From contig DDLT01000057.1 in the NCBI GenBank assembly GCA_002340265.1, forward strand, positions 1 to 51,926: a stretch of 51,926 nucleotides of DNA, written 5' to 3'. The notes under the pieces were generated by a model. The model was not told where the DNA came from. It worked only from the letters and a program-made list of their open reading frames with translations, and made no database searches. The stretch comes from Lentisphaeria bacterium UBA2565. Its GTDB lineage: Bacteria; Verrucomicrobiota; Lentisphaeria; UBA2565. A program made the translations under genes and the position numbers. Below are positions 7,604 through 48,530 of this stretch, in pieces (the stretch's first letter is position 1; the number at the start of each line of letters is the position of its first letter).

Positions 7604-7632
7604 CTATCAGTCAGCAGTGAACAGTTATCAGT
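7604..7632. repeat. Heptad-periodic low-complexity tract (nnnCAGT x4)
   Basis: CAGT at 7608, 7615, 7622 and 7629. Confidence 0.7.
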
Positions 7633-7685
7633 TTTTAATGAATAAAAAGTGAAAACGTAAATCACTGGTGGCTAAGGAAGTCATT

Positions 7686-8186
7686 ATGAAAACTGTTTAT
7701 GTAAATGATAAGATGCAGCAGGGGTATAGTTATATCTTGACCGAACCGGAAGGCGAAAATTTTCATCCTGACTTTGAGCCGGAGTTGTCACCCAAGGAGT
7801 TACTTGAGCTTGGTGTGTTCGGTGGAAAGTATATGACTGACTGCCGGGAAGAGTTTCCTGATGAGTGGTTTGTAAGTGCTAAGTTAAGTCCTAATGGTAA
7901 GAATATAGATTTGAACTATTTTGGTGTAGATGCGTCGCAACCGTTAGCGAAGTGGATTGAAAAGGGCTGGATTAATCCCCAGGACCCACGTGGCTGGTTT
8001 CAATGGTATTGTCGTTATTATATGGGGCGTCGTACAGATGATGACTTACGACAGATCAAGCGTTGGCGGGCATTTAGGCGTCATATCGGTGCGATCAAAA
8101 AGTTCTGTAAACCTTTTGATATGGATTGTCGTAAAAAGCAGCGACAGGCACTTTTGCACTGGGCCTACGATTCAAGAAAAATTTAA
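7686..8186 (+). CDS. Conserved hypothetical cytoplasmic protein
   Basis: ATG at 7686 is preceded by AAGGAAG. Trp/Arg-rich motif GWFQWYCRYYMGRRTDDDLRQIKRW. Family not recognised. Confidence 0.6.
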   Translation: MKTVYVNDKMQQGYSYILTEPEGENFHPDFEPELSPKELLELGVFGGKYMTDCREEFPDEWFVSAKLSPNGKNIDLNYFGVDASQPLAKWIEKGWINPQDPRGWFQWYCRYYMGRRTDDDLRQIKRWRAFRRHIGAIKKFCKPFDMDCRKKQRQALLHWAYDSRKI

Positions 8187-8207
8187 AAAAGCAAAGCCGT
8201 GAGATTT

Positions 8208-8684
8208 AACCACGAATGATTCGAATGAAACGAATAAGGGCTCTTTATGAGTGAAATTTTATTCAAAACTGAATCGTATGATATTATTGGTTCTTGTTTT
8301 AATGTTTACAACAATATTGGACATGGTCTGCTTTAACCTATTTATCAAGAGTCGCTTGAATTGGAATTTGATGAGCAACTTGTTCCATTTTGTGCTCAAA
8401 AAGAGTTGGATATTTATTACTGTGGAACCCTGTTAAAGAAAAAATATATCCCCGATTTTATCTGTTATGGAAAGATTATTGTAGAGATAAAATCAGTAAA
8501 GGTTTTGTTACCAGAACACGAGGCTCAGCTTTTCAACTACTTAAGAATAACTGGAATGAAACTTGGCCTCTTAGTTAACTTTGGCTGTTATCCTAAATTG
8601 GAATACAAACAAATAGTCTGTAATACGATTCTTTAGTTTTTAAAAAATTCGTCTCATTTGATTGATTCGTGGTTTAAAATGTGA
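8208..8684 (+). mobile_element. Non-autonomous cassette of about 477 bp inserted in a terminator loop. It has 31-nt imperfect terminal inverted repeats, a flanking 15-bp direct duplication, and carries a GxxExxY gene.
   Basis: AAAGCCGTGAGATTT occurs at 8193-8207 and again at 8685-8699. Left arm 8205-8235 (TTTAACCACGAATGATTCGAATGAAACGAAT) matches the reverse complement of 8647-8677 at 26 of 31 positions. Confidence 0.5.
8247..8636 (+). pseudogene. GxxExxY family protein (PD-(D/E)XK-like, 23S-IVS-associated family) with TAA replacing the signature Glu
   Basis: ATG at 8247 gives MSEILFKTESYDIIGSCFNVYNNIGHGLL*PIYQESLELEF..., in the same frame as track ORF 8361..8636. The motif G-L-L-(E)-P-I-Y carries TAA at 8334-8336 where GAA is expected. 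Confidence 0.75.
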
Positions 8685-8715
8685 AAAGCCGTGAGATTTT
8701 TGCTCTCACGGCTTT
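8685..8715. terminator. Bidirectional intrinsic terminator between convergent genes
   Basis: Perfect 12-bp stem: AAAGCCGTGAGA (8685-8696) with TCTCACGGCTTT (8704-8715). A/T runs on both sides. Confidence 0.7.
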
Positions 8716-8720
8716 GTTGT

Positions 8721-9731
8721 TTAAGCATATAGTGTTTTGCCATTTATCCAACTGAAGTCGATGGGATCATTTGTGAGTTTGCGGCGTTGCGATAGTTTTT
8801 TATACCTCGGAGCCAGTTTGCATAGGAACTCCTGCGCTTTTTCTGCTTCATTTGAAAGTCCCGATAGATTTTTAAGATTCCACTTTTCTACTAGATAACC
8901 GACAATTTCAGCATAATCGTTTGCAGTATAAACACCGGCTTTCTGAGCCACACGGGAAAAGCTGTCATAAAGGTTTTGGTCTTTGCCGTCAAACATCGAT
9001 TGCGACGGCATGGCGATTTGGTGACGCATCATTTTTTCAAACGCCAAGACTACTCCGTTTGGATCGATTTGCAGCATTTTTTCAATGAAAAATTGATAGG
9101 CTTCTTCGTGTCGTTTTTCATCAGCACAGATAGCGGCGCAGATTCTCTGCAACTGTTTATCTCCCGCTTTTGCCGCGAGACGTCCCGTGTTACGATGTGA
9201 AATTTTGGTGGCGCGTTCTTGAAAAGAGGTGTAGATAAATCCAAGATATGGATCAGTTCCAGTGCCGGAATCAAAGCCGTTGTTGATTAGGTGTTGAATT
9301 GTAATTTGCACAGCTTTCATGTCGACTCGCCCGGAAAGTAGTAAATATTGTGACAAAAGGTCACCATGGCGGTTTTCTTCGGCAGTCCAGCCGCGAACCC
9401 ACCTAGAAAGTACATTGCTGCTTGTACCAGTGGGGTCGTGAAAGCCTTCAAGTCGATTGAACCAGCTCATATAAGTCGGCAACGCTTCTTCGGTGATCAT
9501 GTCGCCGACTAATGAAATAATCAGTTCATCTGGCAGGGCTTGAGCACGTTGGCGAAGTTGATGAAGTTGTTCAATACCTTCATCGGTTTGCAGGTCTGGT
9601 AGAAAATCGGCGGGTTGCCAAGATGTTGAAATTGGATTTAAGAGGGTGTCGATATTGTTTTCGATATCTTTTTCTATGCTTTTGAGAACTTCGGTACGAC
9701 TGAGCAGTTCTCGATTTATGGAAGATGACAT
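8721..9731 (-). CDS. Soluble acyl-ACP desaturase (di-iron, plant/mycobacterial DesA type)
   Basis: Two di-iron motifs: TAEENRHGDLL and ADEKRHEEAY. Length and overall pattern fit stearoyl-ACP desaturase. Confidence 0.85.
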   Translation of the reverse strand: MSSSINRELLSRTEVLKSIEKDIENNIDTLLNPISTSWQPADFLPDLQTDEGIEQLHQLRQRAQALPDELIISLVGDMITEEALPTYMSWFNRLEGFHDPTGTSSNVLSRWVRGWTAEENRHGDLLSQYLLLSGRVDMKAVQITIQHLINNGFDSGTGTDPYLGFIYTSFQERATKISHRNTGRLAAKAGDKQLQRICAAICADEKRHEEAYQFFIEKMLQIDPNGVVLAFEKMMRHQIAMPSQSMFDGKDQNLYDSFSRVAQKAGVYTANDYAEIVGYLVEKWNLKNLSGLSNEAEKAQEFLCKLAPRYKKLSQRRKLTNDPIDFSWINGKTLYA

Positions 9732-9926: not shown

Positions 9927-9975
9927 AACCAGTTAGTCACCTAACTATCTAGATAACTAACCACCCAAATAACTA
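9927..9975. repeat. G-poor AAC(T/C)-word tract; one arm of the inverted pair bracketing leuD
   Basis: AACTAACCACCCAAATAACTA (9955-9975) matches the reverse complement of 10530-10550 at 18 of 21 positions. Confidence 0.6.
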
Positions 9976-10512: not shown

Positions 10513-10528
10513 TTTATAAAATCCTTGT

Positions 10529-10675
10529 CTAGGTATTTAGGTGGCTAGTTGGTTAGTTGGTTAGAGAAATAACCTAGGACTTTCCAATTGCTGACCTTTA
10601 AAATTATACTGAGGCTTCGCCTTTAGGTGGTTAGGTATATGACCTTCGACCTTTCAACTTATGACCTGTGACCAA
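10529..10675. repeat. Heptad-type tracts filling the 163-nt leuC-leuD spacer (TAGGT/TAGTT words, then GACCTnn words)
   Basis: CTAGGTA TTTAGGT GGCTAGT TGGTTAG TTGGTTA ... GACCTTC GACCTTT CAACTTA TGACCTG TGACCAA. Confidence 0.65.
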
Positions 10676-11986: not shown

Positions 11987-12002
11987 GATGAACTCCAATT
12001 TT

Positions 12003-12030
12003 GTGAATAATGAATAATGAAAAGTGAATA
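12003..12030. repeat. Heptad tract TGAATAA TGAATAA TGAAAAG TGAATAA
   Basis: Four consecutive 7-mers immediately upstream of the leuC start region. Confidence 0.65.
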
Positions 12031-12465: not shown

Positions 12466-15006
<2,541 letters not shown>

Positions 15007-15053
15007 AGGTATCAGGCGATGGGCGTTAGGCATAAGGAAAACCTAGTAACAGC
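15007..15053. repeat. Heptad tract (AGGnnnn units); left arm flanking the four-helix-bundle gene
   Basis: AGGTATC AGGCGAT GGGCGTT AGGCATA AGGAAAA. 15022-15037 matches the reverse complement of 15454-15469 at 14 of 16 positions. Confidence 0.7.
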
Positions 15054-15083: not shown

Positions 15084-15440
15084 ATGAGTGGAAAGTTTAG
15101 AGATTTAAGAGTTTGGCAGAGAAGTAAAGCACTTGCTGTTGAAACTTATCGTGCCACAACTGGTGAGTTTTGGGATAGAGACTATGATTTAAGGCGTCAA
15201 ATTCGACGTGCCGCAGTAAGTGTCCCTTCCAACATTGCCGAAGGTGATGGAAGAAGAAGTGATAAAGATTCTTGTCGCTTTTTCTTAATTGCCAATGGTT
15301 CATTGTCTGAACTTTCCACACAATTAGAAATTTCAATGGAAATTGGATACTTGAGTAAGGAGGCTTTTCTAGCTTTCGAAAGTGAAATTCGAGAAATAGG
15401 GCGAGAGCTTGGAGCATTAATTAAGGCACGAAGAGGGTAA
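15084..15440 (+). CDS. Four-helix-bundle protein (23S rRNA intervening-sequence protein family)
   Basis: RVWQRSKALAVETYR...RRQIRRAAVSVPSNIAEGDGRRSDKD...FFLIANGSLSELSTQLEI matches the family signature (SIpsNIAEG.gR.s..e...Fl.iA.GS..E). Confidence 0.85.
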   Translation: MSGKFRDLRVWQRSKALAVETYRATTGEFWDRDYDLRRQIRRAAVSVPSNIAEGDGRRSDKDSCRFFLIANGSLSELSTQLEISMEIGYLSKEAFLAFESEIREIGRELGALIKARRG

Positions 15441-15483
15441 CTGTCACCCTACGCCTTACGCCTAAAGCCAGATGCCTAAAAGG
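15441..15483. repeat. Heptad tract (Cnnnnnn, ...GC|C units); right arm flanking the four-helix-bundle gene
   Basis: CTGTCAC CCTACGC CTTACGC CTAAAGC CAGATGC CTAAAAG. Confidence 0.7.
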
Positions 15484-15491: not shown

Positions 15492-18167
15492 ATGGACGAA
15501 ATTAATGAAAATACAGAAGTAGAAGTTATGGAGGATGCGATCTCTTATAACGATATTCCAGTGAATATCGAAGATGTGATGCATACCAACTACCTTCAAT
15601 ACTCTTTGAGTGTAAATATCGGGCGTGCGATTCCAGATGTACGCGATGGTTTGAAACCGGGTAACCGCCGTATTCTTTATGCGATGCATAAACTTGGTCT
15701 GACTAAGAGTCGCGGATTTGTTAAAAGTGCACGTGTGGTCGGTGAAGTAATCGGTAAATATCACCCACATGGTGACCAGGCTGTTTATGATACAATGGTT
15801 CGTATGGCTCAGGACTTTAACATGTCTGTGCCGCTTGTTGATGGTCAGGGTAACTTCGGTTCGATTGATGGTGATAACGCCGCGGCTCACCGTTATACAG
15901 AGTGTCGTATGGAACGTACTGCTGAGGAACTTCTAGTTGACCTGGAACGCAACACAGTTGACATGGCACCTACTTTTGATGAAAGCATGTTGGAGCCGAC
16001 TGTGCTTCCTGCCCGTTTCCCGAATATTCTGGTAAACGGTGCGACTGGTATCGGTGTGGGTATGGCGACAAGTATTCCTCCTCACAACCTTGGTGAAGTG
16101 GTTCGTGGTACAATTGAACTTATCGACAATCCGGCAATCACAACTGCTGAGTTGATGCAACATGTTCCTGGTCCAGACCTTCCAACAGGTGCATCGATTG
16201 CGGGTCTTCGTGAAATTGTAAAACTTTACGAAACTGGTCGCGGAATCATTCGTATCAAAGCGAAAGCTACAATCGAAGAAAAGAAAGACGGTTCAGAACA
16301 GATTGTCATTACCGAGATTCCTTATGCGGTGAATAAAGAGCGTGCGATTAAAAAGATTGCCGACCTTATCCGCGATAAAGTCATTACCGGAATTCGTGAC
16401 ATTACCGATGCGTCTTCAAAACGTTTGAAAGACAATCCATTTGGTATCAAAATTGTCATTGATGTGAAACGTAACGCGTCGGCAAATGTGGTATTGAATC
16501 AGCTTTATAAACACACACCACTTGCTTCAAGTATGGGATGTCAGCTTCTTGTGATTCACAAGAATCGTCCTGTAACAATGAACCTGAAACAGGTACTTCA
16601 GGCGTATATTGACCACCGCTGGGAAGTGATTCACCGTCGTAACCTTTTTGATCGTGAAAAGGCTCAAGAACGTGCTCACATTTTGGAAGGTTTGTTGAAA
16701 GCTGTTGATAACATTGATGAAGTTGTAAAAATCATCAAAGAGTCTCGCACAAGTGAAGAAGCTGGAGCAGCTCTTCGTCAACGTTTTGAACTGAGCTTCA
16801 AACAGGCGAAAGCGATTCTTGCAATGCGTTTGAGTCAGCTTACCGGACTGGCAATTGATACGCTACAGTCTGAATATGACGAGTTGATGGAACGTATCGC
16901 TTATTTGACTTCTCTGATTGAAAGTCGTGAATTGACAATGGGCGTTGTGCGTGAAGAGCTTGAAGAAATTCACAAGAAATATGCTCAGGATCGTCGAACT
17001 GAATTGATTCCTGGTGAGTCTGAAATCAACCTTGAAGACCTAATTGCGCGTCGTGTGGTAGCGATTACGGTTTCAAATACCGGCTACATCAAGCGTATGA
17101 ATATGGATGAATTCCGTAAACAGAACCGTGGTGGCAAAGGTGTGATTGGTATGAAAACCAAAGAAGATGATCACGTTGAACATCTTTTCACTGCCTGTAC
17201 GCATGATTACATTCTGTTCTTTACTAACAAAGGTCAGATGCGCTGGCTGAAAGCTTACGAGATTCCAGAGTCAGGACGTACCGGTAAAGGTCAGGCGTTG
17301 GTGAATCTGTTTGAACTTGAAGAAGGCGAACAGATCCGTGCAATGTTGACAACCGATTCACTTGACGTGGAAGAGCGTTATGCGATTATGGCAACTAAAA
17401 ACGGTGTAATTAAGAAGACTGAACTGAAAGCGTTCCGTCATCTACGTAAGAAAGGAATCCGTGCGCTGAATATTCGTGAAGGCGATGACCTAATTGACGT
17501 AGCGATTACCGACGGAACAAATCACGTGATGCTTTCAAGTGCACTTGGTAAAGCATGTCGTTTCCGTGAAACCGACGTTCGTCCGATGGGACGTACTGCG
17601 GCGGGTGTTCGTGGTATCACACTTGCCGAAGGTGACAGTGTCGTAGCAATGTCGGTTCTAAATCCGACTGCTGATATTCTGGTAGTGACCGAACTTGGTC
17701 AAGGTAAACGTACTAAAGTTGGTGAAGGAAATGCTGAAGCCGATGCGAACATTGTCGGCGGATATCGTTTGACAAAACGTGGCGGTAAAGGTGTGACCTC
17801 TGTAAAACTCGGCGATGATGACAAAGTAGTTGCGGCGCTTCAGATTGAAGAAGACTGCGATATCATGATGATGTCAATCAAAGGTCAGATGGTACGAATT
17901 GGTACTGATCAGATTCGTCAGATGGGACGTGCTTGTAAAGGTGTCCGCGTGATGAGTTTCAAAGACAAAGGCGACCGTATCAGTTCTGTTTCTAAAATTG
18001 CCGAAATGGCAGAAGAGGAGACTGAACAAGAACTAGATGAAAACGATAACCCAATTGCTCCAGTGGAAAGTAACGAAGCTACCGCTGAAGCAACAGAAGG
18101 TGCAGAAACTGCACCAACCACAGATGGTCCAGAAGCAACTGAAGACTCAGCAGAAACAGCTGAGTAA
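15492..18167 (+). CDS. gyrA: DNA gyrase subunit A
   Basis: Active-site AAHRYTECRM, quinolone-region GKYHPHGDQAVYD, GyrA-box NRGGKGV, and an acidic C-terminal tail. Confidence 0.95.
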   Translation: MDEINENTEVEVMEDAISYNDIPVNIEDVMHTNYLQYSLSVNIGRAIPDVRDGLKPGNRRILYAMHKLGLTKSRGFVKSARVVGEVIGKYHPHGDQAVYDTMVRMAQDFNMSVPLVDGQGNFGSIDGDNAAAHRYTECRMERTAEELLVDLERNTVDMAPTFDESMLEPTVLPARFPNILVNGATGIGVGMATSIPPHNLGEVVRGTIELIDNPAITTAELMQHVPGPDLPTGASIAGLREIVKLYETGRGIIRIKAKATIEEKKDGSEQIVITEIPYAVNKERAIKKIADLIRDKVITGIRDITDASSKRLKDNPFGIKIVIDVKRNASANVVLNQLYKHTPLASSMGCQLLVIHKNRPVTMNLKQVLQAYIDHRWEVIHRRNLFDREKAQERAHILEGLLKAVDNIDEVVKIIKESRTSEEAGAALRQRFELSFKQAKAILAMRLSQLTGLAIDTLQSEYDELMERIAYLTSLIESRELTMGVVREELEEIHKKYAQDRRTELIPGESEINLEDLIARRVVAITVSNTGYIKRMNMDEFRKQNRGGKGVIGMKTKEDDHVEHLFTACTHDYILFFTNKGQMRWLKAYEIPESGRTGKGQALVNLFELEEGEQIRAMLTTDSLDVEERYAIMATKNGVIKKTELKAFRHLRKKGIRALNIREGDDLIDVAITDGTNHVMLSSALGKACRFRETDVRPMGRTAAGVRGITLAEGDSVVAMSVLNPTADILVVTELGQGKRTKVGEGNAEADANIVGGYRLTKRGGKGVTSVKLGDDDKVVAALQIEEDCDIMMMSIKGQMVRIGTDQIRQMGRACKGVRVMSFKDKGDRISSVSKIAEMAEEETEQELDENDNPIAPVESNEATAEATEGAETAPTTDGPEATEDSAETAE

Positions 18168-18182: not shown

Positions 18183-18222
18183 CAGGCTGGCTTGGCATAT
18201 TGTCAGGTTAGCCTGTTTTTTT
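18183..18222 (+). terminator. Intrinsic terminator after gyrA
   Basis: CAGGCT (18183-18188) pairs with AGCCTG (18210-18215), followed by seven T. Confidence 0.55.
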
Positions 18223-18429: not shown

Positions 18430-19494
18430 ATGGGAGAGAAAATAATGACTAAAAACAAATTGATTCGTAATTCCACTGCTGAGTTTTTGATTTTTACTGG
18501 GCAAAGTGGGGAAAGCAGTATTGAGGCTCGTTATGAAGACGAGACAATTTGGCTTTCTCAAAAATTGATGGCAGAGCTTTTCGATGTAAATGTTAGAACC
18601 ATAAACGAACATTTGCAGAATATTTACAAAAGTGATGAACTTACGAAAGAGTCAACTATCCGGAATTTCCGGATAGTTCAAACCGAAGGAAACCGTCAAG
18701 TAACACGTAAGGTTGACTTCTACAACCTTGATGTGATTATTTCTGTTGGTTATAGGGTAAATTCAGTTCGTGCCACGCAATTTCGTCAGTGGGCGACAGC
18801 TGTATTGCGTGACTTTGCAGTTAAAGGCTATGTGATCGACCGTGCAAGAATGGAAAACGGGGTTTTTCTTGATGAAAATTATTTTGAGACTCTTTTAGAG
18901 GAAATTCGTGAAATTCGTCTCTCGGAGCGTCAATTTTATCAAAAAATCACTGATATTTATGCTACGAGTGTGGATTATAACAAGGAAGCTCCAACTACGA
19001 GGAAGTTTTTTGCTAAAGTTCAAAATAAATTACATTTTGCAATTCATGGCCACACAGCAGCAGAATTGATTGTCGAACGAGCAGATTCGACTAAGGATAA
19101 AATGGGACTTTCAAACTGGAAAAACTCTCCCGATGGTAAAATTCTTAAATCGGATGTTTCAGTAGCGAAAAACTATTTGAGAAAGAGTGAAGTTGATAAT
19201 TTGGGGAAAATTGTTAATGCCTATCTGGAATTGGCTGAGTTGAGAGCAAAGCGACAGATTCCGATGACCATGGAAGATTGGGCTAAAAGACTTGACCTTT
19301 TCTTGGAGCTCGATGATTGGAATGTTTTAGAAGGTTCAGGTAAAATTACTTCAGCAGTCGCCAAAGATTATGCTGAAAGTGAATTTGAGAAATACCGGAT
19401 TGTCCAAGACAAACTTTTTGAAAGTGATTTTGATAAAATACTACGCCTTTTAGAAGATTCTGTCGAATACACAGTAAAACCTAACAACAATTAG
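18430..19494 (+). CDS. RhuM family (virulence-associated, DNA-binding-like) protein
   Basis: IEARYEDETIWLSQKLMAELFDV...NLDVIISVGYRVNSVRATQFRQWAT is the typical RhuM N-terminal pattern. Alternative start at ATG 18445 with GGAGAG upstream. Confidence 0.75.
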   Translation: MGEKIMTKNKLIRNSTAEFLIFTGQSGESSIEARYEDETIWLSQKLMAELFDVNVRTINEHLQNIYKSDELTKESTIRNFRIVQTEGNRQVTRKVDFYNLDVIISVGYRVNSVRATQFRQWATAVLRDFAVKGYVIDRARMENGVFLDENYFETLLEEIREIRLSERQFYQKITDIYATSVDYNKEAPTTRKFFAKVQNKLHFAIHGHTAAELIVERADSTKDKMGLSNWKNSPDGKILKSDVSVAKNYLRKSEVDNLGKIVNAYLELAELRAKRQIPMTMEDWAKRLDLFLELDDWNVLEGSGKITSAVAKDYAESEFEKYRIVQDKLFESDFDKILRLLEDSVEYTVKPNNN

Positions 19495-19497
19495 AAC

Positions 19498-20418
19498 ATG
19501 ACTAAATTCTGTTATTTTTATGATCGCAATGGCGATACCATTGAACTTTCGAAGGCGGAGGCGCTTCATCTTACTCAAGGTGAAATTGTCGCGCATGGTG
19601 TTATCGTTAGTGACACGGCTTGTGATTGGCAACGTTCAGCTTTTATTCGTGGTGGTGGAAAGTTGATTGCTTCTGGAAAAAATCTTGATGCACTTTGTGA
19701 ACGCCTTGAAGAGTTAAATGTTTCCGCAAATAATTTTAAGATTGTGTCGGAGCCGATTCCACGTTTGCGAAAGGGGGATCATCATGCAATTATTCAGGTG
19801 GCTGATTCGATCAAAGGCCCTGTTGACCTTAAAAATCCGGAAACTGTTTTTGTGCTTATTATAAGTGGTGAAGGATGCTGGTTGAGTGAAAGTGATGAAG
19901 AAGCCGAACAAGCTTGGAAAACTTTAAAATATAAACCTTTTGCTTTTTGTAATGCGTTGCCGATTAAGATTGCACGAGCGATGATTAATTTGACGGCTAC
20001 ACATGGCGATTCTGTTTTTGATCCGTGCTGCGGGTCGGGAACAATTCCATTGATGGCGGCTGAACTCGGCTTTTCTGCAATGGGTGGTGACAAGAGTTGG
20101 CCGAATTTGAATATAAGTCGAAAGAATATAGCTCATTTCGGTTTTGATGCAGAACTGCTACAGGAAGATGCCACGGAAACTAACCGGGCTACAGGCTGCA
20201 TTGTGACGAATCTGCCTTACGGCTTGTATTTGCCGATTTCTGAAGAGGTATTGATTGGAATGCTAAACAATTTTAAGGGGTTAACTAAAAAGGTCTCGAT
20301 TGTGACAACTGACGATATTTCTGAGAAGTTGACAGATTGCGGCTATCAAATCAATCAGCATATTTTGTCTAAAAGTAACAATTTGGTACGTCATATTTAT
20401 TTGACTGAGGTGATTTAA
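19498..20418 (+). CDS. SAM-dependent methyltransferase (UPF0020/Trm11-like, NLPYG catalytic motif)
   Basis: Motif I is VFDPCCGSGTIPLMAA. Motif IV is IVTNLPYG. Starts 3 nt after the rhuM stop. Confidence 0.7.
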   Translation: MTKFCYFYDRNGDTIELSKAEALHLTQGEIVAHGVIVSDTACDWQRSAFIRGGGKLIASGKNLDALCERLEELNVSANNFKIVSEPIPRLRKGDHHAIIQVADSIKGPVDLKNPETVFVLIISGEGCWLSESDEEAEQAWKTLKYKPFAFCNALPIKIARAMINLTATHGDSVFDPCCGSGTIPLMAAELGFSAMGGDKSWPNLNISRKNIAHFGFDAELLQEDATETNRATGCIVTNLPYGLYLPISEEVLIGMLNNFKGLTKKVSIVTTDDISEKLTDCGYQINQHILSKSNNLVRHIYLTEVI

Positions 20419-20825
20419 TGGAGCTCGGCAAGTTTACAATTAACGATTGGTCTTTCAGCTTTGACTTTGTCAGAGCAGCGGGCCCGGGCGGTCAACATGT
20501 GAACAAAACGTCAACAGCCGTCGTTTTACGTTTTAAACTTTACCAAAGCGGTTTGAGTGAAGGCATTATCAATCGATTCAGCAAAAAGTTTGCCAAACGG
20601 TTAACTTCGGATGGAGAATTGATTATTAAATCGATGAGTCACAGAAGTCAGCTTCGAAATCGTGAAGTGGCTTTTGCGCGGCTTGAAGGAATGATTGCGG
20701 AGGTGGCAGTACGTCCGAAGTTCCGTGTGGCGACTAAACCTTCGAAAGGGGCTAAAAAGCGTCGAGTTGAAGGAAAAAAACGACGCTCCGACGTAAAGAA
20801 AAATCGTGGACGCGTCGATTATTAA
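20418..20825 (+). CDS. arfB: Alternative ribosome-rescue factor ArfB (peptidyl-tRNA hydrolase, GGQ)
   Basis: GPGGQHVNKTSTAV GGQ motif, basic C-terminal tail, about 135 aa. Start overlaps the upstream stop (TAATG). Confidence 0.85.
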   Translation: MELGKFTINDWSFSFDFVRAAGPGGQHVNKTSTAVVLRFKLYQSGLSEGIINRFSKKFAKRLTSDGELIIKSMSHRSQLRNREVAFARLEGMIAEVAVRPKFRVATKPSKGAKKRRVEGKKRRSDVKKNRGRVDY

Positions 20826-23165: not shown

Positions 23166-23182
23166 AAAGTTATCTTGTATGT

Positions 23183-23215
23183 CTGTTAACTGCTGACTAC
23201 TTACTGTTAACTGTT
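23183..23215. repeat. Heptad tract (CTG/ACTG every 7 nt); arm flanking the ECF sigma gene stop
   Basis: CT(G/A) trinucleotide (CTG, CTA at 23197) at 23183, 23190, 23197, 23204 and 23211. The reverse complement reads AACAGTT AACAGTA AGTAGTC AGCAGTT. Confidence 0.7.
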
Positions 23216-23807: not shown

Positions 23808-23830
23808 TTCAGTTATCAGTTAGTAGTTAC
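23808..23830. repeat. Heptad tract (TTCAGTT ATCAGTT AGTAGTT); arm flanking the ECF sigma gene start
   Basis: 23810-23827 matches the reverse complement of 23196-23213 at 16 of 18 positions. Confidence 0.7.
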
Positions 23831-32957: not shown

Positions 32958-33055
32958 TCGTCCTATGTATTACGTAGTACGCACTACGTAGCACTTATTA
33001 CGAAATAAAAAATGCTCTCTCCCTGGATGGGGTGTGTTGTCCCGTCCGTTCTTAT

Positions 33056-33084
33056 GGCTACGACTGAAAGGTCGTAGCCTTTTT
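33056..33084 (+). terminator. Intrinsic terminator
   Basis: GGCTACGAC-tgaaag-GTCGTAGCC followed by TTTTT. Confidence 0.8.
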
Positions 33085-33145
33085 GGGTATTGATTGCTGT
33101 AAATGTACAGAAAGAGTTTATTAAAATAATAATAGGATACTAAAA

Positions 33146-36100
33146 ATGGGAATAAAAAAGGCGTTGACGGCTTTATGCTGTGCGGTGGGGATAACAGGTT
33201 CTCTTTTTGCAACAACGGCATTGGAAATTGTTAATGGAGCAAGTGGCTATGTTGAAAGTCAGAGAAATATCACAGGTTCCACATTTACCTCCATTATGTG
33301 GGTGAAGATGAATCCGACCGGAGGCAATGGAGCACTTTATGGTCTAGGTTCTTCCTCGACTAATGCAAATACAGCATTTTGGGTTAACAGTTCGGGAACA
33401 TTAACGTTTTACAATAAATGGCCGGAAGGGTATGCCACTAATGACGGTTTGATGACAAGTCATTTTAATAAATGGACACATTTAGCATTTGTCGGAGTTG
33501 CCGGCGAAGGCGTTAAAGTTTATATAAACGGTACTCTGGCTTGGACAGTTACAGATACAAAATCAACTGCCGTGGCACAGGATATTACTGCCAATGGCTT
33601 TGTGACTCTAGGCCGAAACTTAGACGGATTAGAACCACAAAATGGAACATCCTATGACGAATTCTCTCTGTGGAGTAAAGCGTTTTCAGATGCGGAAGTC
33701 TTAGCAAACTACAACAATGGAGGCGGCACTGAATTCACAGGAAGTGAGCAAAATCTTGAACTTTATTGGAAGTTTGAAGATGGTGCCGGAAGTGCAATTG
33801 CAACCGATTCTTCACAGCAAGCTCGTAACGGTTCTATCGCTGGAACAGAGGGAACGGATTATAAATGGACATTCAGTAAAGATGTCACAATTTATGACGA
33901 TTTTGAAAATGGTTATGCTAAATGGACTGCAACAGGAACTGCATTTGGTTCAAATCCTATCAACACTGCAACCACCAACAGCAGTGGCTATTATGCGATT
34001 AGTATAAATGACAGCTCAGCGACAGGACTGTTGACATCAGAAACCTTTACTGTTGATAAAGATTTTATTAACTTCAAACTAACAGGTGGAGCAGAACCGA
34101 CTCAGGGAATTCGCTTGGTTATTGGTGGAACACCCGTTATAACTTGGTCAGGAAATGTGGGCTGGGGTAGCGCAAATGTGGCCAATTTTATCTTAGAATC
34201 ATGGGATGTTAGTGACTATAAAGGACAAACAGCTCACTTTGAAATCTTTGATAATGGATCTGATGCCAAAGATTGGGTTGCCGTTGATGATATCACTTTT
34301 TCGACAAAAGCGTTACAAAAGGGAACAGTTTTCGAACTACAACAGCCAAGTTATATGGAGTGGCATTACACTAAACGCATGGCAAATTTTGCTACGAACG
34401 ACAGTTCTGTTCCAACAAACTCTACAGTTTTATTGGGTGACTCAATCACAGAAGTCTTTCCAATGGGAAATGCTCCGGCTAGATGGAATCTTGTGAACCG
34501 TGGAATTCAGGGTGACTGTGTTGGTGGTTGGAAATACCTTGGACTTTATGATCGTCTTCAAGAGTGCGTATATCAACATCAGCCAGCGAATGTTTTCATC
34601 GCCATTGGTATTAACGATATTGTACAATGGTACCCTAGTTACGGAACATCAGCGACCGTTGATCAACTAGAGGCAGGCTACAAAGCCATTGTTGAAGGTA
34701 TTCAAGCAAATAGTCCTAGTACAAAGATCTATCTACAAACGGTTCTACCAACCACTGGGCAATATGCAGAGTATAATGACGAAGTAATAGCTGTCAATAC
34801 ACGCATTGCCAAAGTAGCAACAGAAACAGGTGTAAACTTTCTTGATACCCATAGCGACTTTAAAAATAGTTCAGGAGAGCTTGAAGCGGCATACAGTAGT
34901 GATGGTATCCATTTAACAAGTGCGGGGTATGCAGTCTGGTATGCTGCTCTAACAAAAGTTTTAGATGGACAAGAAGAACAAGTGGAGTTCGAGACTGCAA
35001 AAGAGATTACCTTAGAAGGTTACGATTCCAAAACTTTTGAGACTCCAACAAATCCTTCAAACGGAACTCTGACTCCAGCAGCCGACTTTACAACAAGCGG
35101 TAAAGTGACTTACACTCCAAATTCGGGTTATTCCGGTGCTGACAGCTTCACCTACACAGTTACAGGAGACAGCCGTCCATTTACGGTTTATATCAATGTA
35201 GAAGAATCACCAGCAAACATCCCGGGTCCGGCAATAGGAAAATCACTACAGATTACATCAACTACTGCTGATACAGGGCAGGTAGTTAAAGATTTGTCGG
35301 CTCACACGGCTCTGAATGAACTGACCTTCGAGTTCTGGGCTAAAGTTCCTACTGCTGCAAACTCCAAAAACTGGGTATCGTTGATAATGCTTGAATCGTC
35401 TATGGCTCCAGTAGGCTTGGCTATGGGGGGCACAGGAGGCTTGGTTCCTTACACAGGAGGGAACGCACACAACTATATTAATATTGATGATAGATTTTTG
35501 AACCAATGGCATCATTATGCAATTACTATAGAATTATCCGCAACTGGCGATCCTATACCTGCCGACAAAAATGAGGCTGGACGCAGAGCTACTAGAGTTT
35601 ACATAGATGGTTATAATATTTTCACGGAACAGAATGAGCTACGTTTTGTTTCCAGCATTGGGGATTTGAGTTCATCATGGGGGAATGGTAGCAATGGATA
35701 CCCTGCAGTTATTGATTTGGGTGACCTTACATGCGGTGGATGGACTTCTGGAGCGACTTTTGAGATTGATGAAATTCGTATCTGGAAAGAAGCGCGTACA
35801 CAGACGCAAATTCGTGAAAATATGAATAGAACTAATGTCAATGGAGCTAATCTACTTGTTAATTACAAATGTGATGGAGATACCGCTGACCTTGTTGATT
35901 CTTCCAGTACAGGTAGCACTGCGACTAATGTCGTAACAGGTAACTTAGGTCGTACGACAAGTTACGCTCAAGTATTTGATGCCTCTCCTTTATCTGGCTG
36001 GAATTTCCCAGATTCGATTGGGGAAAGCAAAACCGCAACACGTACTGACGGCGGACTTAAAGTTGATAATGCAACCGTGACAGCGGGAGATTATGTAGTT

Positions 36101-37027
36101 GAAACTGCTATTAACAGTAGCGAAGAGGTGGTCACAACAGAGCTACCTATTGGCATTGTTGAGCGTTTTGAACGTGAATGGTTTGTGCAGGAAGTTGGAA
36201 CTGTCGTCGCTGACATGACCTTTGATACCACAAATATTGTTGACACTTTACCAGCTCAAAGCGAAGCAAAACTTCTTTATCGCTCTACAACTTCTGAAGA
36301 TTTCACAGAAGTGGCAACAGCCTCTTCATCTAACGGCAATGAGTTCACATTCTCTTCAGTATCCTTTATGTCAGGTTATTATACTTTCGGTGCATCGACA
36401 ACCCTTACTCCTTCGATTGGTCTTCAGGTTTCGCAAACTGATGATGAATTGACTTGGACAGTTGAAGATGAAATTGGTGTGAAAGAGTACCAAATCTTCG
36501 TTGACGGTGAACTTTTCGATATAGTTCAAGCTGTGGATGCTGACTTCTACTCTTTAGAAGTTCCAGTAGATGCAAAAGTCGAACTTAAAGTTGTTGATGA
36601 GTCCGGTTATTCTAAGACTTACCTTCCGCAAGATGGCAATACGACAATTGAAGTCTACGACCTTGAAGAGGGTTGGAATTTGGTTGCTATCACTTCGGAT
36701 AAAGCAGATTTAGAAACACTTAGGAATGAAACAGTCGGCGAACTTTGGGGCTGGAACGGTTCCGGTTACGAAGTGGTTGAAACAGCAAAAGCGACAGATG
36801 CAGTTTGGGTATACTCTCCAATTGCAAAACAGGTTTACATTTCAGGTACTAAATCTGATGCGAAGATCAAGTTGAACCTTGGTTGGAACATGGTTGGTCC
36901 AGTTGAAAATGACTTCATTCCAGAAGGTGCTGATACAGTATACAGTTGGAGCGAAGTGTACGATGTAATCGCCGGTGAAGACAAAGTCCTAATCGGCGGA
37001 AAAGGTTACTGGATCTTCTCTCTATAA
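33146..37027 (+). CDS. Secreted multidomain protein: LamG, beta-sandwich, SGNH/GDSL hydrolase, cadherin/Ig-like, LamG, shared C-terminal domain
   Basis: Signal peptide MGIKKALTALCCAVGITGSLFA. SGNH blocks LLGDSITE, GINDI, DGIHLT. LamG patterns (FTSIMWVKM...WTHLAFV...VYINGT; LTFEFWAKV...WHHYAITI...FEIDEIRIW). Ends GGKGYWIFSL. Confidence 0.85.
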   Translation: MGIKKALTALCCAVGITGSLFATTALEIVNGASGYVESQRNITGSTFTSIMWVKMNPTGGNGALYGLGSSSTNANTAFWVNSSGTLTFYNKWPEGYATNDGLMTSHFNKWTHLAFVGVAGEGVKVYINGTLAWTVTDTKSTAVAQDITANGFVTLGRNLDGLEPQNGTSYDEFSLWSKAFSDAEVLANYNNGGGTEFTGSEQNLELYWKFEDGAGSAIATDSSQQARNGSIAGTEGTDYKWTFSKDVTIYDDFENGYAKWTATGTAFGSNPINTATTNSSGYYAISINDSSATGLLTSETFTVDKDFINFKLTGGAEPTQGIRLVIGGTPVITWSGNVGWGSANVANFILESWDVSDYKGQTAHFEIFDNGSDAKDWVAVDDITFSTKALQKGTVFELQQPSYMEWHYTKRMANFATNDSSVPTNSTVLLGDSITEVFPMGNAPARWNLVNRGIQGDCVGGWKYLGLYDRLQECVYQHQPANVFIAIGINDIVQWYPSYGTSATVDQLEAGYKAIVEGIQANSPSTKIYLQTVLPTTGQYAEYNDEVIAVNTRIAKVATETGVNFLDTHSDFKNSSGELEAAYSSDGIHLTSAGYAVWYAALTKVLDGQEEQVEFETAKEITLEGYDSKTFETPTNPSNGTLTPAADFTTSGKVTYTPNSGYSGADSFTYTVTGDSRPFTVYINVEESPANIPGPAIGKSLQITSTTADTGQVVKDLSAHTALNELTFEFWAKVPTAANSKNWVSLIMLESSMAPVGLAMGGTGGLVPYTGGNAHNYINIDDRFLNQWHHYAITIELSATGDPIPADKNEAGRRATRVYIDGYNIFTEQNELRFVSSIGDLSSSWGNGSNGYPAVIDLGDLTCGGWTSGATFEIDEIRIWKEARTQTQIRENMNRTNVNGANLLVNYKCDGDTADLVDSSSTGSTATNVVTGNLGRTTSYAQVFDASPLSGWNFPDSIGESKTATRTDGGLKVDNATVTAGDYVVETAINSSEEVVTTELPIGIVERFEREWFVQEVGTVVADMTFDTTNIVDTLPAQSEAKLLYRSTTSEDFTEVATASSSNGNEFTFSSVSFMSGYYTFGASTTLTPSIGLQVSQTDDELTWTVEDEIGVKEYQIFVDGELFDIVQAVDADFYSLEVPVDAKVELKVVDESGYSKTYLPQDGNTTIEVYDLEEGWNLVAITSDKADLETLRNETVGELWGWNGSGYEVVETAKATDAVWVYSPIAKQVYISGTKSDAKIKLNLGWNMVGPVENDFIPEGADTVYSWSEVYDVIAGEDKVLIGGKGYWIFSL
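36407..37027 (+). repeat. Shared C-terminal domain module, copy 3
   Basis: TPSIGLQVSQTDDELTWTVEDE...EGWNLVAITSDKADLETLRNETVGELWGWNG...GGKGYWIFSL. Confidence 0.85.
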
Positions 37028-37119
37028 TCGTCCTATGTGTTACGTAGTACGTACTACGTAGCACTTAATGTGAAATAAAAATTTCTTCTCCCTAGAATGT
37101 TTGAGTTCGACATTTGCTC

Positions 37120-37148
37120 AGCTGCGATCGAAAGTTCGCAGCTTTTTT
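37120..37148 (+). terminator. Intrinsic terminator
   Basis: AGCTGCGA-tcgaaagt-TCGCAGCT followed by TTTTTT. Nearly identical to 27128..27157. Confidence 0.8.
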
Positions 37149-37311
37149 ATTGAGTATTGTGCAGTTACCAATGTAACAATTTTGAGAAAAAAGTTGTTAA
37201 AATTCCTCAAATCCTAGTGATTTAGTTGATTCCTTTTTTATATTACGCGGTCTTGTGAACTCTGACGTGAGTAATTTTAAAGACGAATTTAATTTTTTAT
37301 GGGGAGTTTTT

Positions 37312-46371: not shown

Positions 46372-46962
46372 ATGAAATGTGATCTTTGCCACATCAACGA
46401 AGCAAGTATTACCATAAAAGGCGACGTGCCGGGCATCGGTTTTAAAGAACTGAACATCTGTACCAGTTGCGCCGCCAAACAGGGCTTTGATGCCCTCGAG
46501 AATATCGTCAAAGGCGTCGGCCTTACCAAACTTTTCGAATCCATGTCCGCCAATCCTGGAGAGAAACTCGCTTTGGACTTTGCCGAAGATGAGGCTGAAG
46601 TTTACGAAGATGGACTGCAGACAGTTTGCGATAGCTGTGGGCACACTCTCAATGATCTAAAGAAATCAGGTAAATTCGGTTGCGTCGATTGTTATGACTC
46701 TTTTTCCGAAATCATCATGCAGGTTCTTGCCAATATGCACAAGGGCGTGATTCATATTCCGCGTGATAATCAGCGCGGCGCAATCAATGTCGAAGTGGCA
46801 AGCGTCGTCGAATTGACTCTGGAAATTTCCCGCAAGCAGAAAGACCTTCAAACTGCTATTAAAAGCGAACATTTTGAAAAAGCCGCACAGCTTCGTGATG
46901 AAATCAGCGAGCTACAGAAAAAACTTGATGACTGCATCAGCAATAATGAGGACGAAAAATGA
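46372..46962 (+). CDS. mcsA: McsA-like protein-arginine-kinase activator (zinc fingers plus UVR motif)
   Basis: N-terminal CDLC...CTSC and CDSC...CVDC pairs. C-terminal UVR-like LQTAIKSEHFEKAAQLRDEISELQKKL. Overlaps mcsB (ATGA). Confidence 0.75.
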   Translation: MKCDLCHINEASITIKGDVPGIGFKELNICTSCAAKQGFDALENIVKGVGLTKLFESMSANPGEKLALDFAEDEAEVYEDGLQTVCDSCGHTLNDLKKSGKFGCVDCYDSFSEIIMQVLANMHKGVIHIPRDNQRGAINVEVASVVELTLEISRKQKDLQTAIKSEHFEKAAQLRDEISELQKKLDDCISNNEDEK

Positions 46963-48035
46963 GTTCGTTTGTTGATGAATTAATCAAAAAAAATATTCCG
47001 TGGCTAAGTTCCGAATCCCAGAGTTCGCCGATTGCCATAAGTTCGCGAATCCGTTTTGCCCGAAATGTCACGGGTTATAATTTCCCGCCAAAACTGAATG
47101 ATGAAAACCGCAATGCGATTTACGAAATTGTCACGCATGCGGTCGAATCATGCCCAATTTTCAAAAACGCCCACCATTGCCAGATTAATGAACTGGAAGA
47201 ATTTGCCCGTGAAGTGCTTTTGGAACGTCATCTTATTAGTGCCGAGCACATGGTAAGTTCGGAAGCGGGCAGGGGAATCGTGGTGAGCGAAGACGAAAAC
47301 TTCAGCATTATGGTCAACGAAGATGATCATGTGCGACTTCAGGGGTTGCGTTCGGGACTTCAACTTCGCGAAATTCATGCCGATCTTCTGCAAATTGATG
47401 AAGCAATGGATAAAAAACTTCACTATGCGTATCGTGATGATATCGGTTATCTTTCTTCCTCTCCTATGAATGTGGGAACCGGAATGCGCGTGTCGGTGAT
47501 GTTGCATCTTCCCGGATTGGTTTACTCCAAACAGATTGATCAGGTGATTAATGCGTTGTCGAAAATGGGAATTATTGTCCGTGGAATTTTCGGTGAGGGA
47601 AGTACGGCGTTAGGTAACCTTTTCCAAATCTCAAACAATTCGACACTTGGCGAAAGCGAAGCGCAAATCGTTGATCGTCTGACAAAAGTGGTAAATCAAG
47701 TCATAATTCATGAAGAGAATGCAAGGCAAACTCTTTTAACTGTAAACGAAACTTTTACCTACGATTTAATCGGTCGCGCTTATGGCGTATTGAAACATGC
47801 CTACCTCTTAGATACAAGAGAGGCGTTGTCAAAACTGTCTGCATTGCGTTTAGGTGTTGATTTAGGAATCTTCGCATTTTTGACCACTGCAAAGGTGAAC
47901 GAACTCTTTGTCGCCACACAGCCGGGGCATCTTCAGATGTACGCTCAAAAAGCGTTGTCACCCGAAGACTGTGAAATCTTCCGAGCAAATCTAGTCCGAA
48001 ACAAACTCTCAGGAATGGGACTAGAACTGGACTAA
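46959..48035 (+). CDS. mcsB: Protein arginine kinase (ATP:guanido phosphotransferase)
   Basis: NEDDHVRLQ and SPMNVGTGMRVSVMLHLPGL motifs of the phosphagen-kinase fold. About 358 aa. Confidence 0.85.
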   Translation: MSSFVDELIKKNIPWLSSESQSSPIAISSRIRFARNVTGYNFPPKLNDENRNAIYEIVTHAVESCPIFKNAHHCQINELEEFAREVLLERHLISAEHMVSSEAGRGIVVSEDENFSIMVNEDDHVRLQGLRSGLQLREIHADLLQIDEAMDKKLHYAYRDDIGYLSSSPMNVGTGMRVSVMLHLPGLVYSKQIDQVINALSKMGIIVRGIFGEGSTALGNLFQISNNSTLGESEAQIVDRLTKVVNQVIIHEENARQTLLTVNETFTYDLIGRAYGVLKHAYLLDTREALSKLSALRLGVDLGIFAFLTTAKVNELFVATQPGHLQMYAQKALSPEDCEIFRANLVRNKLSGMGLELD

Positions 48036-48090
48036 TTTAGTTAGCAGTTAGTAGTAAACAGTTAGCAGTAAATTTAAACTTTAAATTTAA
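48036..48090. repeat. Heptad tract (TTTAGTT AGCAGTT AGTAGTA AACAGTT AGCAGTA AATTTAA ACTTTAA)
   Basis: AGT at 48039, 48046, 48053, 48060 and 48067, followed by A/T heptads. Confidence 0.7.
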
Positions 48091-48106
48091 TTATAGAGGG
48101 TGAATA

Positions 48107-48427
48107 ATGATTGGTGAGATTTTTAAACTATTTATTTTGATTTTTAATTTTGTGTTATTTCCAATATCCGTAATTTTAATCTTCAAGATTTTTGGTTACA
48201 CACAAAGATCCGAACAGGAAATAAAAGAGTTAAGTTCTGAAATTGATAAGTTGCGTAAAAGCATTGGCCTATTGGTTGCCGAGGCTGAATTCCCGGAAGA
48301 GTTTAAAGATAGAATGAAAAAGGTCTTAAAAAATATTGGTGAGGATTCTGCTTTTGCACTTATAAAAGAAGAGTTTTCTCTGGAAGATAGTCAAGTGAGA
48401 CTGGTTTTTGAAAAGATACTTGCCTGA
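48107..48427 (+). CDS. Small membrane-anchored hypothetical protein
   Basis: N-terminal TM (IFKLFILIFNFVLFPISVILIFKIF) followed by a charged helix. RBS GAGGG upstream. Confidence 0.5.
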   Translation: MIGEIFKLFILIFNFVLFPISVILIFKIFGYTQRSEQEIKELSSEIDKLRKSIGLLVAEAEFPEEFKDRMKKVLKNIGEDSAFALIKEEFSLEDSQVRLVFEKILA

Positions 48428-48480
48428 ACTGGAGAATTTGCTTTACTGCTCTTTAAAAGAAAGAGAGCAATAAAGCAATA

Positions 48481-48530
48481 AATAGCTAGTCAATCAAGCT
48501 AACAAACTAACTAACCAACTAAAACAACAT
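48481..48530. repeat. G-poor CTAAC/AACTA word tract (weakly periodic)
   Basis: caatcaagctaacaaactaactaaccaactaaaacaac. Opposite-sense vocabulary to 48036-48090, on the other side of the small gene. Confidence 0.45.

Follow-up and report, generated by a model that had tools for sequence, protein, structure and literature searches.

The window analysed here, 51,926 nucleotides (nt) of Lentisphaeria bacterium UBA2565 (contig DDLT01000057.1, assembly GCA_002340265.1), contains short, degenerate tandem tracts in its intergenic spacers, many of them arranged as inverted pairs around single small genes. The clearest pair lies between gyrB (12484-15006) and gyrA (15492-18167). Starting with the first base after the gyrB stop codon, a G-rich array of AGGCnnn heptads (15007-15053; lag 7, z 3.6) is followed by a four-helix-bundle gene on the plus strand (15084-15440) and by a C-rich array of GCCTnnn heptads (15441-15483; lags 7 and 14, z 4.2-4.5) that ends 2 nt before the ribosome-binding site (RBS) of gyrA. 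The product of the enclosed gene matches TIGR02436 (NCBIfam E 2e-33) and the Pfam family PF05635 (23S_rRNA_IVP, the S23p family); gene and arms together are here called a cassette and the gene its cargo. The arms form a predicted duplex of -39.3 kcal/mol (z -6.4), a value equalled by none of 500 shuffles; the base directly following the gyrB stop codon is paired in it with the one located 2 nt ahead of the gyrA RBS. Periodicity was scored for each tract as the match fraction by lag against mononucleotide shuffles, and arm pairing was scored with RNAduplex against shuffled sequences.

Periodic tracts in the intergenic DNA

A first-pass annotation of the sequence had listed eleven such tracts as a family with many inverted pairs around single small genes. 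The family stands, and all eleven tracts were found where they had been placed. Nine had been described as heptad-periodic and two as weakly periodic. Lag 7 or 14 is the strongest in eight of them (7604-7632, 12003-12030, 15007-15053, 15441-15483, 23183-23215, 23808-23830, 27009-27080 and 48036-48090; z 3.6-5.9), the two weak ones (9927-9975 and 48481-48530) have lag 4 as the strongest, and the remaining tract, 10529-10675, is a mixture of lags 8 and 7.

The tracts themselves had been chosen by the earlier reader, and a scan with no coordinates chosen beforehand was made of all 32 intergenic segments (4.2 kb). Three lag-7 windows with at least 16 matches of 21 were found, compared with 0.05 in 200 dinucleotide shuffles, and the same criterion gave none in 47 kb of coding sequence; the claim of periodicity thus holds against shuffled controls. 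Lags 8 and 9 gave two windows each in the intergenic scan. Tandem Repeats Finder (TRF) reports a period of 7 or 14 at 7605, 12004, 23183, 27042, 32967, 37041 and 48039, and two period-7 tracts, 32965-33005 and 37035-37075, are additional to the original eleven. Strong lag-7 tracts occur at 5.8-7.2 per 100 kb in this lineage, whereas 80 unrelated genomes, sampled over 1.44 Mb, gave 0.69 per 100 kb. In the unrelated genomes the strong tracts are concentrated in two contigs of Pyrinomonadaceae (Acidobacteria), L030 (19709-19800) and L073 (17560-17700), where they are inverted pairs of the types CAGTAGT/ACTACTG and GAGTTTn/nAAACTC.

The tracts had been said to abut stop or start codons, and they do begin 0-7 nt past a stop codon or come shortly before an RBS or start codon. 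The compositional skew that had been ascribed to every tract is present in several: C is absent from 12003-12030, and G makes up 3 of 49 nt in 9927-9975 and 3 of 50 nt in 48481-48530. It is weak in the pair around the extracytoplasmic function (ECF) sigma gene. At least seven types of heptad unit occur in the window, and no heptamer is common to all cassettes. Opposite-sense pairs are found around each of the four genes for which they had been claimed, namely the four-helix-bundle gene, leuD, the ECF sigma gene and the small open reading frame (ORF) at 48107-48427.

The gyrB-gyrA spacer in related genomes

Several metagenomes hold contigs that are 99.995-100% identical to the window. The contigs with the window's own four-helix-bundle protein (L001-L004) have this degree of identity and therefore give no information on polymorphism. 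A scan of GTDB genomes with GyrB found no close genome, the best match being 53% identical. The nearest named homologues of GyrB, the Ser/Thr kinase and McsB belong to Lentisphaerae, Verrucomicrobiota and Kiritimatiellota and are not cyanobacterial. The comparison was made with contigs of GyrB relatives at 78-92% amino acid identity.

The cassette is gained, lost and replaced between these close relatives. The window's four-helix-bundle gene is not present in the gyrB-gyrA spacer of L085, L087 or L090. The spacer is 8 nt long in L090 and geneless, 77-79 nt, in L085 and L087; L087 retains the left arm of the window's cassette and, across a short loop, a degraded right arm, and its spacer is thus an empty hairpin. 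In L089 and L175 the spacer contains an unrelated four-helix-bundle gene that is 22-25% identical to the window's (without a BLASTP alignment for L089) and is flanked by arms of GAACAnn and nnTGTTC heptads. The GyrB proteins of L085 and L175 are 99% identical (95.5% at the nucleotide level) and only L175 has the cassette, the homology ending exactly at the gyrB stop codon and returning about 15 nt before the gyrA ATG. An insertion or deletion polymorphism of the kind that the first-pass annotation proposed to look for is found here for a whole cassette. Arm pairing in the cassettes of the relatives has z-scores of -3.9 to -9.1.

Two further four-helix-bundle genes of L087 lie within inverted period-8 arrays that abut the neighbour's and their own stop codons. 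The 8-nt units of these arms (L087 1-160 and 1656-2140) are of the types GGTGTGAC and TATGACGG, one array has about 18 units, and the two cassettes are placed on either side of a single DUF1573 gene.

A short target duplication, TAA or ATAA, was considered at the cassette borders and rejected, being indistinguishable from a stop codon in an AT-rich context. Comparison of the relatives' junctions gave no consistent target duplication at any cassette other than the GxxExxY cassette described below. In the terminator scan the gyrB-gyrA junction has no intrinsic terminator, the first one being located at 18183-18215.

Four-helix-bundle genes in metagenomes

When metagenomes were searched with four aligned four-helix-bundle proteins, 80 loci with a GC content of 35-67% were obtained, and 182 ORFs on the same contigs served as controls. 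A strongly periodic flank was found for 66% of the 70 genes with full flanks and for 8% of the control ORFs, and the period was 7 in 57 of 61 periodic flanks. The gene's own flanks were complementary in 50% of the 70 genes, compared with 2% of the controls and 3% of non-cognate flank pairs. Removal of redundancy, with one representative for each 80%-identity cluster, left 52 clusters, in which a period-7 flank was found in 67% (controls 7%) and complementary flanks in 58% (controls 2%). Two of the checks suggested in the first pass, enrichment beside four-helix-bundle genes and complementarity of the arms, were thus positive in the metagenomes.

The arrays have a fixed polarity. The upstream array is G-rich by 34:2 and the downstream array C-rich by 28:2, and among loci with both arms the G-rich array precedes the C-rich one in 19 and follows it in none. 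This order does not depend on the strand from which it is read and so belongs to the element itself, not to gene orientation. The downstream array begins a median of 3 nt past the stop codon, array length is about 39-40 nt or roughly 5-6 units, and in 53 of 68 loci the gene has the orientation of its upstream neighbour. The type of heptamer co-varies with the similarity of the four-helix-bundle proteins, even in non-homologous contexts. No rRNA was found in any of the 40 metagenomic loci scanned for it.

A GxxExxY cassette beside a terminator hairpin

One inverted pair beyond those of the first-pass list surrounds a GxxExxY gene (8247-8636, plus strand; TIGR04256 / PDDEXK_3), the C-terminal part of which has an NCBIfam match with E 1e-25. 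The arms are an array of period-9 CGAATGAnn units on the left (8205-8235; TRF period 9) and its partner on the right (8647-8677), an inverted repeat of 31 nt with 84% complementarity and a duplex of -32.1 kcal/mol (z -9.1). The 15-bp direct repeat AAAGCCGTGAGATTT is found exactly at 8193 and 8685, one copy on each side of the insert. The second copy is the left arm of an intact bidirectional terminator hairpin (8685-8715; 12 pairs in the terminator scan), and the first (8193-8207) is a duplicate of that arm; the outer sequences 8186-8204 and 8700-8722 also pair (z -6.6).

An in-frame TAA (8334-8336) splits the GxxExxY gene, the N- and C-terminal parts of which share one frame; the gene is probably a pseudogene. 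The TAA is located where relatives would have a glutamate codon and is kept in the identical metagenome contigs. In L178 a GxxExxY gene has inverted period-9 arrays on both sides, CGGAATAAA and AATTCCGTT. Only two GxxExxY loci outside the window were informative, one with period-9 inverted arrays and one without.

Hairpins, single arrays and other bracketed genes

Three paralogous large genes, ending at 27008, 32957 (29850-32957) and 37027 (33146-37027), have hairpins but no gene in the slot after the stop codon. Comparison of the three ends (26990-27175, 32940-33095 and 37010-37160) showed that the coding sequences finish identically, with TGGATCTTCTCTCTATAA, and that all have a 3' module consisting of AAATTTCTTCTCCCTAGAATG, a variable hairpin and then a terminator, AGCTGCGATCGAAAGnTCGCAGCTTTTTT. 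The paralogues differ only in the slot directly after the stop codon. In one of them an "empty" hairpin with a GGTTnnn arm and then an AACCnnn arm (27009-27080) starts at the first base after the stop codon, the region 27006-27085 having a minimum free energy of -24.5 kcal/mol (z -3.9). In the other two it is occupied by TACGTAG-type heptad hairpins, at 32965-33005 (lags 7 and 14, z 4.7-5.0; fold of 32958-33012, z -3.75) and at 37035-37075 (lag 7, z 5.1; fold of 37028-37082, z -4.5).

A third kind of cargo was found after mcsB (46959-48035), where an ORF of 106 amino acids (48107-48427, plus strand) encodes an N-terminal hydrophobic segment and has a weak, sub-threshold NCBIfam match of the FtsL type. 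Its left arm is an AGCAGTT/AGTAGTA heptad tract abutting the mcsB stop codon (48036-48090; lag 7, z 4.8) and its right arm a G-poor CTAA/CTAAC tract of period 4 (48481-48530; lag 4, z 4.2), with a pairing z-score of -3.85. The CAGT-type tract after mcsB is kept, one unit shorter, in the McsB relatives L179 and L180. Neither the ORF (by tblastn) nor the right arm was found in these two contigs, and all three sequences diverge exactly at the end of the post-mcsB tract. L179 and L180 have identical McsB and different downstream genes, and their sequences part right after the heptad tract (1703-1735 in L179 and L180). Array families are dispersed, recurring at non-homologous loci; CAGTTA arrays, for example, were found at four different sites.

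The genes leuD and leuC are on the minus strand. A G-poor tract of CTAA/CTAACC words (9927-9972; lag 4, z 4.2) abuts the leuD stop codon, and a C-poor tract of TAGGT and GGTTAG words (10529-10564) lies 16 nt upstream of the leuD start; the two pair with -30.8 kcal/mol (z -4.4), and the mRNA strand of the former can also self-fold via G.U pairs (z -2.7). The first 31 nt of the spacer upstream of leuD are kept in L175 and the remainder is replaced. An array of TGACCnn heptads (10636-10675) abuts the leuC stop codon, and a homologous GAC-type array is found at the corresponding site in L085 and L175. Its pairing with 10526-10570 is not significant (z -0.5), and the leuC-leuD spacer was rejected as a self-contained hairpin (fold z 0.1, with the same lack of arm pairing). 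A tiny GGC-TTCG-GCC hairpin, GAGGCTTCGCCT, occurs in this spacer in both the window (10611-10622) and L085 (7970-7981), and a similar one, CAGGCTTCGCCTG, occurs after mcsB in L181 (about 9438-9450). Just upstream of the leuC RBS are four TGAATAA units (12003-12030; lag-7 match fraction 0.81, z 4.4). The same site contains TTAGGAA/TTAAGAA units in L175 and about 1.5 units in L085, and a TGAATAA array is also found at a non-orthologous L175 site upstream of the ECF sigma gene. Complementarity between the flanks of leuC is not significant against shuffles.

The ECF sigma gene (23216-23803) is convergent with a kinase gene. Between them a CTGTTAA-type heptad tract (23174-23215; lag 7, z 5.7) abuts the sigma stop codon, and the sigma leader contains a CAGTTAn tract (23808-23830; lag 7, z 4.7) that is complementary to 23180-23215 (z -6.0). 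The 3' tract is identical in 42 of 42 nt in L175 (11962-12003); identity is about 88% in the aligned coding DNA next to it and 75% over the wider block. L176 has an array similar to that of the leader and no 3' tract, and in L175 four other arrays take the place of the leader tract. These four (L175 12592-12740) are, in order, three TGAATAA units, an array of the CCCTTACGCC type, a TGTTC arm and an array of the CTAACC type, and the leader resembles a pile of single arms; 19 of 20 nt of the TGTTC arm are identical to the right arm of L175's own gyrB-gyrA cassette 7 kb away. The terminator scan gave no terminator-like hairpin at 23174-23215 between the convergent genes.

A solo array of four nnnCAGT units (7604-7632; lag-7 match fraction 0.68, z 5.1; TRF period 7) begins 6 nt after the stop codon of a DUF1294 gene (7196-7597). 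It forms a modest local hairpin only (z -3.0), and a partner arm was not found.

No Rfam family matched anywhere in the window and no tRNA was present in it. In the terminator scan no tract coincided with a terminator-like site, the canonical terminators being located farther downstream. Following gyrA, a RhuM-like gene and a methyltransferase gene occupy 18430-20825, the former missing in L087. A long ORF with helicase-like motifs, identified by eye, runs from 48681 off the end of the window (51926), and its ortholog in L179 follows directly after mcsB. The content of these two regions (18430-20825 and 48681-51926) is possibly variable or defence-related.

Heptamer arrays in named organisms

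Four-helix-bundle homologues were found on 21 plasmids, 19 of them cyanobacterial. Inverted heptamer arrays surround the gene in Nostoc edaphicum (GGGAACA/TGTTCCC) and in Anabaena sp. 90 (GGTGACA/TGTCACC, between cas6 and cas4), and further inverted heptamer flanks were found on plasmids of Calothrix brevissima, Nostoc ATCC 53789, Geminocystis and Stanieria. The exceptions are Pseudanabaena, where the arrays are direct, and one Calothrix gene without arrays. In Pseudanabaena galeata pPg_01 the direct arrays consist of 14 AAAGCTA and 10 AAAGCCA units. The gene order cas6, four-helix-bundle gene, cas4 is found in both this plasmid (L173) and Anabaena sp. 90 pANA02 (L183).

The four-helix-bundle ORF of Azospirillum lipoferum AZO_p2 lies inside large subunit rRNA (Rfam 904 bits) and is thus part of a true intervening sequence (IVS). 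This IVS has the same build as the cassettes of the window, its arms having a lag-7 match fraction of 0.54-0.67 and pairing with -74.7 kcal/mol (z -7.7).

Discussion

We consider it reasonably probable that the tracts are arms, decayed single arms or empty hairpins of selfish cassettes of the IVS type residing in the spacers of protein genes. Of the three roles suggested in the first-pass annotation, insertion scars of IVS-type cassettes fits best, because the enclosed genes are of the S23p and GxxExxY families, cassettes are present or absent in relatives, and a true 23S IVS has heptad arms. Cistron-bracketing RNA stems are conjectural as a selected function, of which the mismatch spectrum treated below gives no sign; the leuC-leuD spacer has no significant fold, and the two sigma tracts occur independently in relatives. 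The lack of a heptamer common to the cassettes weighs against protein-binding arrays without being decisive.

Each element consists of two inverted arrays, each of 3-6 degenerate units of 7 nt (sometimes 8 or 9 nt), with either a few bases between them, which gives a hairpin, or a single small ORF that lacks a promoter. An S23p four-helix-bundle protein is the usual cargo, with GxxExxY proteins and other small ORFs as variants. The element takes up its spacer, beginning directly past the upstream stop codon and ending shortly ahead of the following RBS. In the transcript the arms are predicted to pair as a long imperfect stem with the cargo looped out. The gyrB stop codon would thereby be brought next to the gyrA RBS and a short effective spacer restored, like the 8 nt of L090. 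By analogy with rRNA IVSs, RNase III may cleave the stem, so that the insertion is tolerated inside an operon. Slippage and copying between arms, both acting on the DNA, could generate the arrays and keep them homogeneous, and the G-rich-first order may shield the C-rich arm from Rho while the loop is transcribed.

Several observations weigh against this proposal. Transcription, cleavage by RNase III and mobility in this organism are deduced from sequence. The mismatches in 39 stems were 40 of G.U type and 42 of A.C type, and since G.U is not in excess over A.C, selection on a sense RNA helix is not detectable; the arms have the look of copies made at the DNA level and now in decay. No sequence is common to the arms of different cassettes and no single recombinase site is therefore evident, and no transposase or integrase was recognised among the annotated genes of the window. 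The tracts at 7604, 12003 and 10636 have no partner. Conserved resident genes, leuD and the ECF sigma gene, are bracketed as well, and the two sigma tracts occur independently in relatives; the complementarity of these brackets is real and its meaning uncertain. The perfect conservation of 23174-23215 does not fit a simple picture of junk with a fast turnover, and the 7-nt period itself is left unexplained by the cassette model.

The tracts could instead be ordinary neutral microsatellites, with slippage favouring 7-nt units in AT-rich spacers and template switching producing the inverted pairs, without any element. Unit numbers do differ between relatives in the mcsB tract and between Coxiella strains, units change in concert at one site (TGAATAA versus TTAGGAA/TTAAGAA), the lack of a G.U bias agrees with it, and heptanucleotide repeats are reported to be over-represented in bacteria, with polymerase slippage as the proposed cause (PMC4692102). 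Microsatellites would leave unexplained the association of periodic flanks with four-helix-bundle genes, the complementarity of a gene's own flanks as opposed to non-cognate ones, the 19:0 polarity of the arms, the near-identical arrays at unrelated loci and the perfectly conserved 42-nt tract; the flank periodicity, complementarity and polarity data already disfavour them, and we regard this origin as quite unlikely. Host-gene regulatory RNA, that is terminators, attenuators, Rho-loading sites or stabilising 3' hairpins to which the small genes are incidental, is very improbable. It would account for tracts that begin directly after stop codons, for the three significant hairpins and for the tract conserved in 42 of 42 nt, and Xanthomonas heptamers are likewise found about 28 nt after the upstream ORF (PMC4692102), but the tracts do not overlap terminator-like sites, canonical terminators lie farther downstream, Rfam gave no match, the leuC-leuD spacer has no significant fold, and most tracts are replaced or missing in relatives whose flanking genes are 95% identical.

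A role for the cargo itself, with the arrays as binding sites for a pentameric S23p protein, about five heptads to the ring, serving autoregulation or the propagation of the element, is unlikely on balance. The related Avd protein of diversity-generating retroelements binds nucleic acid and reverse transcriptase. The length of the arrays, roughly 5-6 units, and the co-variation of heptamer type with protein similarity across non-homologous contexts agree with such binding, and the S23p protein of Xanthomonas campestris is a homopentameric toroid (PMC4990558). The same architecture is nevertheless found around unrelated cargo (GxxExxY and the 106-amino-acid ORF) and around none, two complementary arms cannot be read alike as single strands, the co-variation would equally follow from arms travelling with the ORF or from shared host ancestry, and the Coxiella S23p protein is apparently not made in vivo (PMC4990558). 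If the arms were terminal inverted repeats of non-autonomous transposons resembling MITEs (miniature inverted-repeat transposable elements), with a transposase supplied in trans, RNA structure would be irrelevant. The inverted termini and 15-bp direct repeat of the GxxExxY cassette, the presence or absence of cassettes between near-identical genomes, the strand-symmetric mismatch spectrum and the dispersal of array families are all compatible with transposons of this kind. A single transposase for all cassettes is unlikely because the termini within one 52-kb window are completely different (AGGC, CGAAT, CAGTT and GGTT) and could not all be recognised by it; the other cassettes show no consistent target duplication, transposon ends would not be expected to fit precisely from stop codon to RBS or to have the G-rich-first polarity, and in rRNA IVSs of the same build it is the RNA that is cut. 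A MITE-like origin is accordingly rather improbable.

With IVS-type cassettes as the preferred reading, the findings connect bacterial heptamer repeats of a class that has long lacked an explanation with a mobile element. To our knowledge, bacterial heptamer repeats have no accepted origin or role, and the S23p four-helix-bundle family has no known function outside diversity-generating retroelements. The two puzzles can be placed in a common, testable frame in which the repeats are paired cassette ends and a selfish element may survive in essential operons (gyrBA) and in cas operons through arms that fold it out of the transcript. Four-helix-bundle genes inside cas loci may then be passengers and not partners of the clustered regularly interspaced short palindromic repeat (CRISPR) system, and the hypervariability of spacers at cassette sites offers a ready strain marker. 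The literature search was incomplete and its result is weak evidence, but within it no paper linked four-helix-bundle genes outside rRNA to flanking heptamer arrays, and the link is apparently undescribed there.

A wider generalisation is more doubtful than the reading for this window, though possible: bacterial heptanucleotide repeats in general, including those of cyanobacteria, the Xanthomonas GGGAATC arrays and the tracts described here, might be arms or footprints of one family of IVS-like selfish cassettes with four-helix-bundle or GxxExxY ORFs that use any transcribed spacer or helix. If so, the target sites of IVS-like cassettes would comprise rRNA, RNase P RNA, operon junctions and cas operons, and the way in which the element arises or is recognised would lie behind both the 7-nt unit and the G-rich-first polarity, for example through a toroidal pentameric S23p protein gripping about five heptads or through a need to conceal the C-rich arm from Rho.

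Comparison with known systems

Repetitive extragenic palindromes (REPs), bacterial interspersed mosaic elements and MITEs resemble the elements of the window in being small, dispersed, strain-variable intergenic inverted repeats after stop codons. REPs and MITEs have one conserved sequence per family and no internal tandem periodicity, whereas the arms in the window are of many low-complexity types. With regard to MITEs, the arms differ between the cassettes of the window, yet array families recur at unrelated loci, and only one cassette has a 15-bp duplication.

Integron cassettes are similar in that they are compact, promoterless single ORFs, co-oriented with upstream genes, with imperfect inverted repeats in which structure is more conserved than sequence, with presence or absence and with remnant arrays. 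The integron attC site is a single palindrome downstream of each ORF, whereas two tandem-repeat arrays bracket the ORF here. Neither an integrase gene nor an attI site was recognised among the annotated genes of the window; attC core sites (RYYYAAC ... GTTRRRY) were not searched for.

Catalogues of heptamer repeats go back to about 1990 for cyanobacteria and to 2015 for Xanthomonas, and the STRRs of the cyanobacteria, repetitive sequences of short units in tandem, have the consensus heptamers CCCCAGT, TTGGTCA and CAACAGT. The likeness to STRRs noted in the first pass holds for the class, both being short tandem heptanucleotide arrays in non-coding DNA. It does not extend to sequence, since each of these units occurs 2-9 times on both strands of the window, where about 6 are expected, and never in tandem. 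Unlike STRRs, the window arrays are short and degenerate and their host is not a cyanobacterium.

In Xanthomonas the GGGAATC arrays are intergenic, mostly of about four units, and include 70-75 convergent inverted pairs; they have no known function and vary rapidly in length and sequence between related species (Rehm et al. 2015, PMC4692102). Nostoc PCC 7120 has GGGGA(C/T)T repeats, and the Xanthomonas and Nostoc units have been studied as formers of G-quadruplexes, no link to four-helix-bundle genes being drawn (PMC4692102). Like the window tracts, these repeats are intergenic heptamers of about four units near the 3' end of the upstream ORF with convergent inverted pairs. They differ in having one dominant G-run unit per genome, while the 52 kb of the window contain many unit types with few G runs. 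GGGAATC, GGGGATT and the Coxiella heptamer are not enriched in the window, and the first two do not occur in tandem there.

The closest counterpart is the S23p-type 23S IVS of Coxiella, Leptospira and Azospirillum. In Coxiella burnetii it is described as selfish, carries an S23p ORF in its loop and has a 28-bp terminal stem that is cut by RNase III, together with 2-3 tandem GACAGAT heptamers, the number depending on the strain (PMC4990558). Variable heptamer copy number and an ORF that is often decaying are general features of this type of IVS. It is located in helix 25 or 45 of 23S rRNA, the window elements being between protein-coding genes, and unlike it some of the latter carry other cargo or none. 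The gyrB-gyrA element has three of its defining features, an S23p ORF, paired terminal inverted repeats and terminal tandem heptamers, and lacks a fourth, the location in 23S rRNA; it is therefore classed as a variant of the S23p-type IVS and not as a member.

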